This document shows positions 13,001-60,290 of a stretch of 64,000 bases of DNA, one piece after another. The position numbers and the translations under genes were made by a program. The DNA is from Schmidtea nova (lineage: Eukaryota). The stretch lies in the NCBI GenBank assembly GCA_044892505.1, contig JBJFYY010000085.1, positions 1-64,000 on the forward strand, read 5' to 3'. How positions within the stretch are numbered: the stretch's first letter is position 1; every line of letters starts with the position of its first letter. Under the pieces are notes generated by a model, which ran no database searches, was not told the origin of the DNA, and saw only the letters and a list, made by a program, of their open reading frames with translations.

Positions 13001-16000
13001 GCAAATAAATTACAGTGAACCCCGTCTATAGTGGGCATGTTTCAGACCATGATTTGTGCATCATGACGGCCACGTATGCTAGTTAACTTCTAAAAGGCCA
13101 TTAGGCTAGTTTAGAAATGAAAGATATAGATGGAATTGTATCGGGCAGCGCGCAAGAGATATAGAGGACCCTAAATGTTTACATCGTACTCATAAGGCTT
13201 CGTACGCAGAAGTCGTTTTATTTTAGGGCAAATGAGACGCTTTAGTGTGGATATCCTCCTTGATTAGGTTATGTCGTCGGATATTATTGTCTCATCGTTC
13301 AGATACAGATCTTTGCACTCATTTACCTTATAACAACCGTGTTAATGACGATATCTTCACTACAGATTCATCCGTCTCTTTCGGCTTATTTTCACGCCAG
13401 GCGCAACTGTCCATACAAGCGGCGTATAACATGTGGTGCAATGTACATTAATCAGAAATAGGTGCCAATTATTAATCAAACATTACTTGGATGAAGTATC
13501 GCTTTAAAAATCAACATGTTTTGAGTGTAAAAGCTGAAAACATATGAAAGTTAAAAATATAAATGGATAAAATATTATTAAAAGGAAAGCTGGTCCCTGA
13601 GGCATAGGTGTATAATAGCAACTAGTTAAATAACTAATTGAATGAAATTATTCCATAAATCATTGCGAAAGATGAAGGCAAAAAGTCGGTTATGCAAATA
13701 GGGGATATAAAATGGCATGGGCGGGATTGGAGGGGGAAACTCGATATCGGGCGGGTCTCGTGAAAGAAATCTAGATAGGAGATATCCCCACAATGATTGG
13801 TGGGGAACGGTTATATCTGAACCAACTGATAGAGGGACAATTGCCATTGTGAACCATTACAAGATATTGGTTGTATTGTGGTGGAAATATCTAGAACCAA
13901 GTTGCGGAGGAATAAATATTTTAGTCTGTTTACAACACTGGTTATAGAATTTGGAAAGCTTTGGGATATTTGATTAATTAATTAATTGATTTGCTGAGAG
14001 TGGATTCTGTAGATATCCAATCAAACTAGTTGAAACCCCAACCGAGGGCTCCCGTATTAGTGTCATCCAATAGGATAGGAGGGCTCTCACGATATTCTGC
14101 TTCCCAATTGGTTAATATCCCAATTATTGAATGATTGCACTGCCAAATGGCCTTGGATAAGGGGAGAGTGGGGAATGCCTGGATATGGGACTCAATCTCA
14201 ATATGATATTAATAGGTATTCGACGACTGTATAATCCTTCGCAGTATATCAGGAGCCATCGTAGACAGGTGGTGGTTCGAGAAGATAATCCATTTCAGCT
14301 TCTGTCCAAAAACCAAAGTCGTGGTATTCTGGATGAAGGACGGCTCGAAAATCGCCCATAACAAGCTCTACACCAAAAAGGTAATAAATGTAATAAATGC
14401 TACTGATAAATATCTGCAATGCCAGTGCAAAGAACTCTACAACTGTGTCAAGGAGACGATGGAAAGGGCAGCAGCCAGGACGATGAGCGGAGGAGACCCA
14501 TGTTTGTTTTGTTGATTGTGTTACCGCTCTGTCCTCTAGTAGTGTATCACAATGTCCTTTACGTGTTTTTGTCTTTTCAGCTCCAGAAATGGGTGGTGAG
14601 TTCCCGATAAAGGATCGCAATACAGAGGAGGAAGGAATCTTACAGGTTTGCATGGACGGTTTGTCCATCAATTTTCCCACGAAACAAGTAAGCAGCAAAT
14701 TTGTTGTAAAATTTTGGCAAATGTTTTGCATGTAAGCATATGATGAGGTTGATGTTCACCTGTGTGTTTTTCAGCACTTTGTTCCCATTGCACAAATCAG
14801 ACGCTGCCTCACTCACAAGGCTAACATTTTCATCATTGAGATCATTGGTAAGTGTTGTCACCTTTCTCCTCTCAGCTTACTGTAAGGAGCTAAATGGAAT
14901 GATCATTTACCTAAATGCTTTGACGTTTTTAATGCAACTTATTTGTCATTTTATTATCATTATTATTATATAATATAATATTAATATTATTTATTATCAT
15001 TATCTTTTGGCTTCACTTTGATCTTTTTTAATTCAATAATTTCCAAGTCTACAGATCAAATCAATAATTATTTTATTGAGTACACGATATTTCTGCACCG
15101 CCTTTATCGAGTGTATAATCTTAGAAAAATGAATTGAAAATTATTGAAATAATTATTTATTATTATCATTATTATTAATATCAATAATTCCCATAATGGT
15201 AAGACTAGATCAAATTTTATTTAAATAAGTATACAATATTTCGGCACAGCCTTTATCAAGTATAGTCTTACCATTATGGGAATTATTGATATTAATATTA
15301 AAAAATCAAAAGTGAAACAAAAAGATAATTATGACATTATTATTACTATAAATTTGTTTAATATTCTATCGATTTTCCTATTTAATTTGGGTCATTCCGT
15401 TCATGGTGAATGTGATTGCAAATGACAACTCACAATATAAGGATAGCCTCCCTCTGGGATAGACTCATTGAACTAATTGATATCATGCGGGCTTCAGTGC
15501 ATGAAACATTCTATGTATATTCGCTATTGGAAATGGGATTGTTATATGGAGTTGCATACAAAATGTTCCTTATTTGTTGTTTCTGTCGTATAAGATAATA
15601 ACATGTCCATATTATTGGCAGAGTATCTTATTATTTATCAGCACTAGTCCCGTCACCGTTTAAATATGAGTCAGAGAATTATCCACAAATAATTTATTTT
15701 ATTCTATTGATTTCGTTATCTTTTCCTTGGTGTAATGATTAGTCAGTATTGGCCAATCAGCATCGCATGCACACTTTACGCATACGCCATTCATTGATAG
15801 GTAAACCAATCAAATCATTAGATTGCATCCAATCATTATTTTATTGATTTTGAATGCTTTTTCATCAACTTTATCCAGAATTTTATTTTGTTGTTGTTGT
15901 AAAATTAACATAGATGCTCATTTCAAATGCTATTAGAATGTCAATCAAATTTAGGAGAAATGTTCATAACCGTTTACTACTTACGTTATGCTGCTTTCAA

Positions 16001-16433
16001 ATCGTTCTCATCAACCTATTTACCTTTATATTTTCCATTCAGATCCTCAAACTAAAAAAGTTCGTATGAAGAAATATTACTCAGATCAGGTGAAATATTT
16101 GTTTTATTATGTTTAATATCTTCACTGATTTTATAATTTTATTGGTTTAATAATAATAATAATATGATAGCAATATAATATTTTAAATGCTTGAGAAATA
16201 TCCCATCAGAAATAACTAAATAAATCTCCTCCGTTCAGGCCAGCAACATCACCTATTCCGTGCTGTGCTTGTTCTCATACCTTGCAGCCAGCCTCCACAC
16301 CAGCCCCTCTCCCAGTGCTTCTATATGCTCTGACATAGACAAAATGCTATCCAACTCCACAAATCCCAACCACAGAATGCCCAGTGAGGACAGTCTAGTA
16401 GCTCCTACGCAAAATATTATCACCTCGTCCTGA
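688..16433 (+). CDS. MADD: MAP kinase-activating death domain protein (DENN/MADD, Rab3/Rab27 GEF); 5'-partial, multi-exon
   Basis: Hand-spliced GT-AG exons: 688-978, 1030-1771, 3494-3786, 3913-4110, 4850-4881, 4933-~5033, 5669-5828, 5882-5932, 9790-9952, 10001-10190, 10242-10445, 10495-10561, 10776-10871, 11027-11323, 12175-12674, 12724-12831, 14216-14380, 14426-14501, 14581-14687, 14775-14847, 16043-16089, 16239-16433 (TGA). Recognisable MADD motifs: [122 protein letters not shown]. The phase at the 5033/5669 junction did not resolve, so the middle low-complexity exons are less certain. The N-terminus lies upstream of the window. Confidence 0.95.
2395..2479. repeat. 17-bp tandem repeat (ATGGGCGATTTCGCCAA) x5
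   Basis: Five consecutive copies read directly; each contains the palindrome GGCGA-TT-TCGCC. Confidence 0.9.
2793..3071. mobile_element. PIF/Harbinger-type MITE
   Basis: TAA on both sides (2790-2792, 3072-3074). Imperfect TIR GGACCCGTCCAT vs GGGCCCGCCCAT (reverse complement of right end). The right end CGTGATGTCATTTATGGGCGGGCCC has the form of Harbinger MITE ends. Confidence 0.7.
7770..8360 (+). mobile_element. Penelope-like retroelement remnant (RT fragment plus GIY-YIG end and 3' terminus)
   Basis: [12 protein letters not shown] matches the PLE RT xLYGLPK motif. At ~8005, [16 protein letters not shown] resembles the GIY-YIG C-terminus. The 3' sequence is homologous to 33845-34300. Internally deleted. 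Confidence 0.7.
8602..9023. mobile_element. Non-autonomous hAT element (MITE)
   Basis: TIR CAGTAGCGTCACTAAGG vs CAGTGGTGTCACTAAGG (reverse complement of right end). 8-bp TSD GAGGCGTT / GATGCGTT (1 mismatch). Confidence 0.8.
10610..10664. repeat. (TA)n microsatellite
   Basis: Read directly; lies in a MADD intron. Confidence 0.95.
12915..12997. repeat. (ATT)n microsatellite
   Basis: Read directly; lies in a MADD intron. Confidence 0.95.
15081..15115 (-). ncRNA. Degenerate minimal type-I hammerhead ribozyme motif (copy A)
   Basis: Minus strand UACAC-UCGAUAA-AGGCGGUGCA-GAAA-UAUC-GUGUA. Stem I is intact, but there is a U4>C core change and a stem II mismatch. Confidence 0.45.
15230..15264 (-). 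ncRNA. Minimal type-I hammerhead ribozyme motif, U3-A8 variant (copy B)
   Basis: Minus strand UAUAC-UUGAUAA-A-GGC-UGU-GCC-GAAA-UAUU-GUAUA: stem I UAUAC/GUAUA, stem II GGC/GCC, palindromic AUAU stem III, putative AUU cleavage triplet. Confidence 0.65.
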
Positions 16434-59893: not shown

Positions 59894-59894
59894 T

Positions 59895-60290
59895 ATATTA
59901 TATGAACTATATTGTTTTTCAATATATTACATGAAATATATTGTTTTTTAATATATTATATGAAATATATTGTTTTTCAATATATTATATGAACTATATT
60001 GTTTTTTATTAATATCAATAATTCCCATAATGGATGAATATATATGAATACTTATATGAATACTTATCTTTAAATAATTACACAATATTTCGGCACAGCC
60101 TTTATCAAGTGTATTTCAATATATTATATGAACTATATTGTTTTTCAATTTATTATATTAACTATATTGTTTTTTAATACATTATATGAACTATATTGTT
60201 TTTCAATTTATTATATGAACTATATTGTTTTTTAATACATTATATGAACTATATTGTTTTTTAATATATTGTATGAAATATATTGTTTTT
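59895..60290. repeat. ~27-bp AT-rich minisatellite (ATATTATATGAACTATATTGTTTTT-type)
   Basis: Read directly; interrupted by a hammerhead-bearing repeat at ~60005-60115. Confidence 0.85.
60079..60113 (-). ncRNA. Minimal type-I hammerhead ribozyme motif, U3-A8 variant (copy D)
   Basis: Minus strand UACAC-UUGAUAA-A-GGC-UGU-GCC-GAAA-UAUU-GUGUA: 5-bp stem I, palindromic AUAU stem III. Confidence 0.68.

Follow-up and report, generated by a model that had tools for sequence, protein, structure and literature searches.

The U3-A8 exchange is tolerated in hammerhead kinetics. Hammerheads carrying that pair have been in print since 2014, when ~1,300 hits were reported in Schistosoma mansoni (Cervera and de la Pena, PMC4209133), and the same account places the swapped core pair in Schistosoma Penelope elements. 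The U3-A8 core of the locus considered here is accordingly no new variant, and the present family adds another case to an established kind. As summarised in PMC8557442, Penelope-like elements form partial tandems with an inverted 5′ copy and a tail of 30–40 bp, and the Hydra clade is marked by a DKT motif, a CxCx5C linker and an endonuclease without CCHH. Among the papers listed on planarians, Penelope elements and hammerheads, none concerned the present family to judge by title, and the supplements of PMC4209133 and PMC8557442 may hold the same or a close one.

The window analysed, 64,000 nucleotides of contig JBJFYY010000085.1 of Schmidtea nova, had been read from its sequence as carrying four minus-strand motif copies, and a pattern search allowing up to three mismatches returned all four sites, against 0.01 matches expected from 100 shuffles, with an exact 24-base core in copies B (15236-15259), C (26946-26969) and D (60085-60108). 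Copy A (15087-15110) breaks the stated consensus, with U4 changed to C, C11.1 changed to A, C at position 17 and an altered loop; owing to the A at 11.1 its stem II is unable to close, and the fold predicted for it is no hammerhead. All four motifs very probably represent 90–130-base stubs of the pLTR of one abundant, young Penelope-like element, the motif itself being a minimal type I U3-A8 hammerhead for which self-cleavage is predicted to be weak and likely to require dimer formation or help from protein. The features recognised in the window, with element positions numbered from U3 as +1, were as follows.

14992..15117, minus strand: copy A, an old, decayed pLTR stub with tail, -6 to +127 (71% identity to the intact element by alignment).
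15131..15156, plus strand: probable but weak inverted arm belonging to copy A, short (inverted repeat of 22 bases with 86% complementarity; aligns weakly to the element).
15169..15261, minus strand: direct arm of copy B, -1 to +92 (81% identity to the youngest subfamily by alignment).
15230..15264, minus strand: copy B hammerhead as drawn in the sequence-only reading, enclosing the exact core (pattern match and predicted fold).
15263..15334, plus strand: inverted arm of copy B, 5′-truncated, with tail (39-base arm, 97% complementary; aligns to +63 to +125).
26846..26972, minus strand: direct arm of copy C with tail, young, -2 to +127 (97% identity to the intact element).
26973..27110, plus strand: inverted arm of copy C, beginning at +21 and containing a 33-base piece three times over (repeat analysis and alignment).
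60004..60117, minus strand: copy D stub, starting ~9 bases upstream of U3 (alignment; ends judged by eye, ± a few bases).

Inverted arms and a 35-base tail, as is usual for Penelope-like elements, are among the features of these stubs. Copy A lies antisense within an apparent intron of a MADD/DENN gene; the direct arm of copy B stops at the first of two 3′ end sites, within an AAT run; and copy D, which has a rearranged middle and no tail, is embedded in a 29-base minisatellite. The flanks that had been described as shared and devoid of an ORF proved to be the reverse complement of the pLTR segment holding the first ATG of the element's long frame. When excised, copies B, C and D are each predicted to fold into a stem I plus a 3-bp stem II, the stem I of copy C comprising 3 bp (CAC/GUG) adjoining the core, although folding copy C together with its own inverted arm is predicted to sacrifice stem I to a long hairpin. 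Cleavage is predicted between 15235 and 15234 in copy B, from the NUH rule (PMC3884650), and after 26945 in copy C.

The three exact copies conform to the core Y3-U-G-A-N-R8-A9 ... G12-A-A-A15.1 ... U16.1-H17 with a Watson-Crick 3-8 pair, an extra A between positions 9 and 10.1, a G10.1-C11.1 pair and a palindromic U-A at 15.2-16.2, whereas copy A fails at U4 and has G10.1-A11.1. For B, C and D, the sequence-only reading was borne out as to the minimal type I fold, the U3-A8 core, the extra base and the palindrome, as was its expectation that a CUGANGA search would miss the motif; an Rfam scan of the window (E ≤ 10) gave five weak matches and no hammerhead, minimal motifs lying outside such models. 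A descriptor leaving positions 3 and 8 free, applied to 73 loci of related elements, produced 52 hits representing 26 distinct motifs, 25 of which pair the two positions (17 C-G, 8 U-A; the remaining one unpaired), whereas ten shuffles gave 0–2 hits each with 3-8 paired in none. These are not 26 separate events, because many come from few assemblies: 19 are not independent of assembly, and ten derive from loci of one WLWD assembly. On the AT-rich host genome a loose descriptor returned 6–18 hits per shuffle, and by reason of this noise it was applied there to repeated motifs only. The related locus of highest protein identity (L155, 42%) has the identical seven core letters, forms its stem I from other paired bases (UUCC/GGAA) and carries G-C in place of U-A at 15.2-16.2. 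Compensatory support for stems I and II was found between families only (L155 and others). The stem II of 3 bp with a 3-base loop is shorter than in all 26 related motifs, and free-energy co-folding of two copies paired the loop region and gave no textbook dimer with a stem III across the A-U-A-U palindrome.

Compared with the Schistosoma mansoni Cercyon minimal hammerhead, as far as it is described in PMC4209133, the motif is alike in being type I without a real helix III, in its palindromic 15.2-16.2, extra base between 9 and 10.1, G10.1-C11.1 pair, stem I of 4–5 bp and U3-A8 core, and in occupying pLTRs, mostly as single dispersed copies with close opposite-strand pairs. It differs in its stem II, which has 7–8 bp in Schistosoma, where the supplementary alignment of PMC4209133 may nevertheless hold similar short stems, and in that U3-A8 is here the standard core of a uniform family with 44,306 exact cores, as against ~1,300 heterogeneous hits.

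The intact element is built of head-to-tail units of 2,767 bp; within these the motif, present in both pLTRs, lies ~100 bases past the ORF stop and 66 bases ahead of the first ATG of the next unit. The ORF, of 865 aa, encodes a reverse transcriptase (RVT_1, E 1.4e-7) and, at its C terminus, a GIY-YIG domain (E 1.8e-6). Same-strand cores 2,759–2,767 bases apart flank it in four of seven genomic stretches examined, the frame being open over 869 codons in two of these, and units are 98.0–99.96% identical to one another. A single ORF for both enzymes, partial tandems serving as pLTRs with a hammerhead, an inverted 5′ copy and a tail at one end, all seen here, are features of endonuclease-positive Penelope-like elements, with which, on the account in PMC8557442, the element also shares head-to-tail pLTRs and a 5′-truncated inverted arm. 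A further likeness, to Poseidon of Anolis as regards mechanism, resides in a pair of 3′ end sites separated by 35 bases and close to where the ORF begins, and in AT-rich targets (PMC8557442; PMC11167929). However, the first ATG follows the predicted cut site by 41 bases, where the elements compared in those two sources have it inside stem II, and the 3′ end sites lie ~25 and 60 bases into the ORF, against 111–118 in those elements (PMC8557442; PMC11167929). The protein mixes the clade marks given in PMC8557442: a Hydra-type SDKT and a C-L-C-x5-C linker are present, yet CCHH is kept, contrary to the Hydra clade, with C780, C783, H802 and H813 nearly invariant among 14 relatives, and the Cys-rich linker differs in spacing from the CX2-5CxxC of Nematis/Neptune. 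Forty protein relatives were found at E ≤ 1e-20; nematodes were named for all nine to which an organism was assigned, at 25–28% identity to the element protein. No relatives were found in viral contigs, and a sequencing-run search placed the element in four contig sets of one study, with no RNA run among the matches listed.

The genome-wide search advocated by the sequence-only reading returned the 44,306 exact cores, against none for a reversed-pattern control. An evenly spaced 800-kb sample (0.8 Mb of 1,251 Mb) supplied 45 arms for alignment to the element, two of which (L076) resemble microsatellite noise, with short alignment ends accurate to ± a few bases. Starts fell at -9 to +4 in 26 of the 45, including 13 at -9 to -7 and 13 between -5 and +4; five more were at +36 to +40, near the stem I 3′ foot, and none at +23 to +35, a span that includes the predicted cut site. 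Nine arms shared the single most frequent start base, and three extended into the ORF. Their 3′ ends clustered at +85 to +98 (18/45) and +124 to +127 (22/45), two sites ~35 bases apart that fall for the most part within runs of AAT or AT. Of 60 starts in a second, core-selected set, 32 lay at -10 to -6; very few copies end within the next 100 bases upstream. A spliced leader or common upstream exon was considered and rejected: in a set of 60 short copies, for which a match to at least -6 was demanded and whose histogram is therefore truncated, the flanks of the 17 lacking an inverted arm share AT-run words only. Inverted arms, often found at the 5′ end of the stub, are truncated pLTR copies of varying length, and the first 100 cores listed included 21 head-to-head pairs less than 300 bases apart.

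Covariation of stem I between the window copies, as originally claimed, did not withstand this wider comparison. The UAUAC/GUAUA pairing is present in copy B, but most of its 5′ strand is contributed by the inverted arm, and 214 copies carry the 3′ change, of which the first 100 listed comprise 94 that keep the old 5′ strand, uncompensated, four that match and two others; the apparent covariation arises from a junction combined with an isolated point change. Comparison of 47 exact cores separates subfamilies by loop, position 17 (U in the main subfamily) and flank. A canonical C3-G8 sister family with the same stem II was sought and discarded, only six C3-G8 matches being found, as against single-change variants numbering 75 for U3-G8 and 80 for C3-A8 (patterns with four extra 5′ bases). 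Three of the six are copies from the old subfamily with the 5′ flank preserved, a frequency exceeding the product of the single rates, but as older copies carry more changes this is only a hint that a C3-G8 ancestor may have preceded the U3-A8 family. One locus (L079), examined for an ORF of the U3-G8 family, was a microsatellite array with no ORF.

The distance of 149 bases between copies A and B was correctly noted, but its interpretation as a retrozyme-like tandem unit was not sustained: the copies share just 76% identity across 63 bases, fall into different subfamilies, and are separated by the end of B, an AAT run and the inverted arm of A. They are two separate insertions that differ in age and share one AT-rich spot. 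The alternatives offered at the same time, a non-autonomous retrozyme or a Penelope-derived family, can be narrowed to the latter, as the presence of the motif in both pLTRs of intact autonomous elements speaks against a separate retrozyme. That two hammerheads release a ~149-base unit which then closes into a circle and inserts anew is thus very improbable, even though A and B share a strand, 51 same-strand pairs (two runs of three copies among them) occur genome-wide at about this spacing, and a preprint derives animal retrozymes from pLTRs (10.64898/2026.07.22.740005). Those 51 pairs amount to ~0.1% of the 44,306 cores; spacers differ among the ten loci examined; same-strand spacings below 3,500 for the first 100 cores listed were 299, 415, 818, 1078 (twice), 2170, 2759, 2767 (three times) and 3209; and none of the 45 sampled copies starts at the cut site. 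The metazoan non-LTR retrozymes, so far as PMC7229834 and 10.64898/2026.07.22.740005 describe them, are alike in their type I hammerhead, short non-coding copies and reliance on a retroelement enzyme; unlike them, the present copies have no fixed-size tandem unit each with a hammerhead, no canonical loop-loop hammerhead and no sign of a stub lineage of their own, each stub coming from the autonomous element. A DNA-level foldback or MITE with a loop that resembles a hammerhead by chance would account for the long hairpins of copies B and C, but is scarcely credible given arms that are truncated copies of the same pLTR and vary in length, a motif flanking an RT + GIY-YIG ORF, and 3-8 pairing across families.

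As to how the stubs arise, we tentatively propose that the hammerhead fold forms the 5′ end of the element RNA and that nearly all genomic copies are reverse transcripts of its first 100–135 bases, made from uncut RNA primed in the first pLTR. The RNA would begin 8–10 bases upstream of U3, where stem I starts; the endonuclease would nick AT-rich DNA, and reverse transcription would initiate inside the RNA at the two 3′ end sites, a process comparable to that of the anole element in vitro (PMC11167929). Priming in the first pLTR would copy only those first bases, generating stubs that are likely dead on arrival, and priming after read-through into the next unit would generate long copies. The start of the RNA is read from copy ends, and stalling of the enzyme could yield the same picture. 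A possible but doubtful alternative retains the hammerhead shape with cutting lost, as a 5′ leader, a protein-binding site or a passenger in a young family. The minimal stem II and the U at position 17 in the main subfamily would suit it, as would the poor cleavage of minimal Schistosoma motifs even as dimers (PMC4209133) and the anole data, in that ribozyme mutants insert normally in vitro and no RNA-seq reads were reported to end at the cut site (PMC11167929). The anole motif nevertheless cleaves in the presence of its protein (PMC11167929), and here all core positions, the 3-8 and G10.1-C11.1 pairs and the palindrome are retained across families, and the subfamilies vary at the loop, position 17 and flank; the lack of copies beginning at the cut site (0/45), which would suit a silent fold, is also expected if uncut RNA alone is copied. 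Another reading takes the stubs for ordinary 5′-truncated copies, with reverse transcription starting at the far pLTR and stalling at or just past the folded hammerhead to give the -9 to -7 cluster. Truncation at the 5′ end is the rule in Penelope-like elements according to PMC8557442, and stalling would explain the arms ending at -5 to +4 and near the stem I 3′ foot, but this reading seems unlikely because the sharp peak stands at the fold's far (5′) edge, which the enzyme would already have passed, with 9/45 at one base, 32/60 at -10 to -6 in the core-selected set, and very few ends in the next 100 bases upstream.

As one more family of a variant in print since 2014, the motif is of little weight as a ribozyme; U3-A8 is nonetheless common in Penelope-like elements (8/26 distinct motifs), and descriptors confined to CUGANGA undercount hammerheads. 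Being young, intact and very abundant, the family offers a convenient system for asking what weak ribozymes do for an element, with a testable lead in the lack of ends at the cut site and in the sharp clustering of 5′ ends. If the fold is indeed the 5′ end of the element RNA, then the ribozyme would be a timed off-switch or a 5′ leader for template use, and not the maker of unit-length or circular RNA; the genome would preserve tens of thousands of these events as a natural archive, and its C3-G8, U3-G8 and U3-A8 families would mark the route by which the core was exchanged.

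Exact copies of the 24-base hammerhead core, in which positions 3 and 8 are U and A, numbered 44,306 across the 1.25 Gb genome, the reversed-pattern control giving none. Seven genomic stretches picked for cores near one another were fetched, and in four of these a long ORF lay between same-strand cores 2,759-2,767 bases apart, the frame being open for 869 codons (865 counted from the first ATG) in two of the four. With one unit taken as reference, three others showed 98.0, 99.6 and 99.96% identity, and the family is therefore young. A protein search returned 40 relatives at E<=1e-20, the nine with an organism name being Ancylostoma and Haemonchus proteins. 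The motif is situated about 100 bases 3' of the stop codon and 66 bases 5' of the first ATG of the next unit, and the segment bearing it is almost certainly the pseudo-LTR (pLTR) of an endonuclease-positive Penelope-like element. The flanks that the sequence-only reading had described as shared but without an ORF proved to be the reverse complement of the pLTR segment bearing that first ATG. The ORF protein (L032:1570-4164, in a fetched stretch) agrees with the Hydra description in its DKT and CxCx5C marks, but its intact CCHH is against that description; judged from its sequence, it may represent an unplaced lineage. Its closest unnamed relatives also have DKT and CCHH.

The features of the window are as follows.

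688-16090, plus strand: MADD/DENN host gene
14992-15117, minus strand: copy A (pLTR stub bearing the motif)
15169-15261, minus strand: copy B (direct arm)
18788-23185, minus strand: NGP1NT + MMR_HSR1 GTPase host gene, which we take to be NOG2/GNL2-like
26846-26972, minus strand: copy C (direct arm)
36699-37172, plus strand: frame resembling a non-LTR endonuclease end
37276-38152, plus strand, and 38868-39218, minus strand: Mariner/Tc1-type and DDE_1 transposase fragments
42239-42583, minus strand: DUF5600 exon of a host gene, presumably EHD-like
43038-53984, minus strand: open frame of 3,648 codons composed of a 111-base (37-aa) repeat
56585-59893, plus strand: open frame of 1,102 codons composed of a 111-base (37-aa) repeat
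60004-60117, minus strand: copy D

The two 37-aa-repeat frames are divergent, have a unique N-terminus in common and flank a PCMT gene fragment (54766-55104); Pfam returned no credible match to either, and none to the non-LTR-endonuclease-like frame.

All four minus-strand motifs previously noted were present (four core matches at <=3 mismatches versus 0.01 expected), with the exact core confirmed in copies B, C and D but not in copy A, whose core and stem II are both broken because U4 is replaced by C and C11.1 by A. Predicted folds comprised stem I and a 3-bp stem II for B, C and D, and no hammerhead for A; an Rfam search of the window gave no hammerhead. Copy A has a tail and a weak inverted arm, copy B carries its tail on the inverted arm, copy C has a tail, its inverted arm containing a 33-base piece in triplicate, and copy D is placed within a 29-base minisatellite. 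In sequence, the four fit the published signature of Penelope-like copies, in which partial tandems go together with a tail of 30-40 bp and an inverted 5' copy (PMC8557442). Copies A and B read as antisense insertions within an intron of the apparent MADD/DENN gene, the exon limits around them being judged by eye.

Neither the covariation of stem I nor the retrozyme-like spacing of A and B, both proposed earlier, was borne out. Among the first 100 listed of 214 copies with the 3' change of copy B, 94 had an unchanged 5' strand, at the cost of the stem-I pair, four matched and two were otherwise; the stem-I 5' strand of copy B is mostly the end of its inverted arm. A and B are 76% alike; A resembles the young element at 71% and B at 81%, the interval between the two copies consisting of the end of B, an AAT run and the inverted arm of A. 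Same-strand pairs at similar spacing numbered only 51 genome-wide, spacers were unlike one another in 10 loci read from those pairs, and the stub family (short pieces of the pLTR, 90-130 bases long in the window) has no amplified unit. Three stubs in a row, spaced 148 bases apart, occur at G000:C1:610133996-610134292 and at C2:343434695-343434987; these rare local tandems could be seeds of retrozymes.

Copy ends were located in 80 evenly spaced 10-kb stretches, containing 17 exact cores and 45 aligned arms (direct or inverted stub pieces), two of the latter resembling microsatellite noise. With U3 as +1, 13 arms started at -9 to -7 and 26 at -9 to +4, three extended into the ORF, and none of the 45 started at +23 to +35, the predicted cleavage product beginning at +26. 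Their 3' ends fell at +85 to +98 (18 arms) and +124 to +127 (22 arms), in most cases running into AAT or AT repeats. Of 60 copies in a further set, chosen for exact cores, 32 started at -10 to -6 and 15 reached >40 bases upstream. Head-to-head pairs were common, 21 occurring among the first 100 cores listed. The 5' ends of stubs showed neither a spliced leader nor a common exon. At L035 and L079 (fetched loci), stubs adjoin AAT arrays of 1.5-3 kb, and the stub-plus-array blocks are themselves repeated.

Because identical copies within one young family are uninformative on selection, motifs were compared across families, using the 73 loci listed out of the 394 confirmed stretches of a metagenome scan and a descriptor with positions 3 and 8 left free. 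This gave 52 matches, 26 of them distinct (17 C-G, 8 U-A and 1 A-U at 3-8), although these are not 26 independent events since many come from few assemblies; ten shuffles gave 0-2 matches each, none paired at 3-8. L155, at 42% the closest of the loci in protein identity, has core letters identical to those of the window family, a different yet paired stem I, and G-C where the window family has U-A at 15.2-16.2. Every feature listed for minimal hammerheads of Penelope-like elements in PMC4209133 is present here (extra base after A9, G10.1-C11.1, palindrome), and that paper records about 1,300 hits with U3-A8 in Cercyon elements. Against the hammerhead reading, stem II of the window family is the shortest among all motifs seen, and co-folding of two copies did not return the textbook dimer. 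Cleavage that is real but weak is more likely than not.

Other hammerhead motifs occur in the same genome. C3-G8 minimal motifs were found in at least three further repeat families (L117, L075, L123, L024, L012 and L083), L117 having four copies, three of them ~964 bases apart; in two of these families the cores lie 3' of GIY-YIG fragments. Another family has a U3-G8 wobble core and 6-bp stem II 3' of a GIY-YIG fragment (L008:986-1025), with copies at L008, L079 (five, from one amplified locus), L093 (two) and L124, several of which are identical in the motif; this core may be a step on the way from C3-G8 to U3-A8, or the ribozyme may be silent.

For an element whose structure, copy ends, targets and motif conservation are established, the following mechanism may be proposed. 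The cluster of 5' ends quite probably marks the RNA start, placing it 8-10 bases 5' of U3. The protein would nick AT-rich DNA, and priming would occur at two sites inside the RNA, as in the anole element, the tail of which corresponds to the interval separating two internal start sites of reverse transcription (PMC11167929). Stubs would result when uncut RNA is primed in the first pLTR, and long copies when priming follows read-through. Cleavage, if any, is likely to be weak and dependent on a partner copy or the protein and, by analogy with the anole element, for which insertion without need of cleavage is described (PMC11167929), is likely to be dispensable for insertion.
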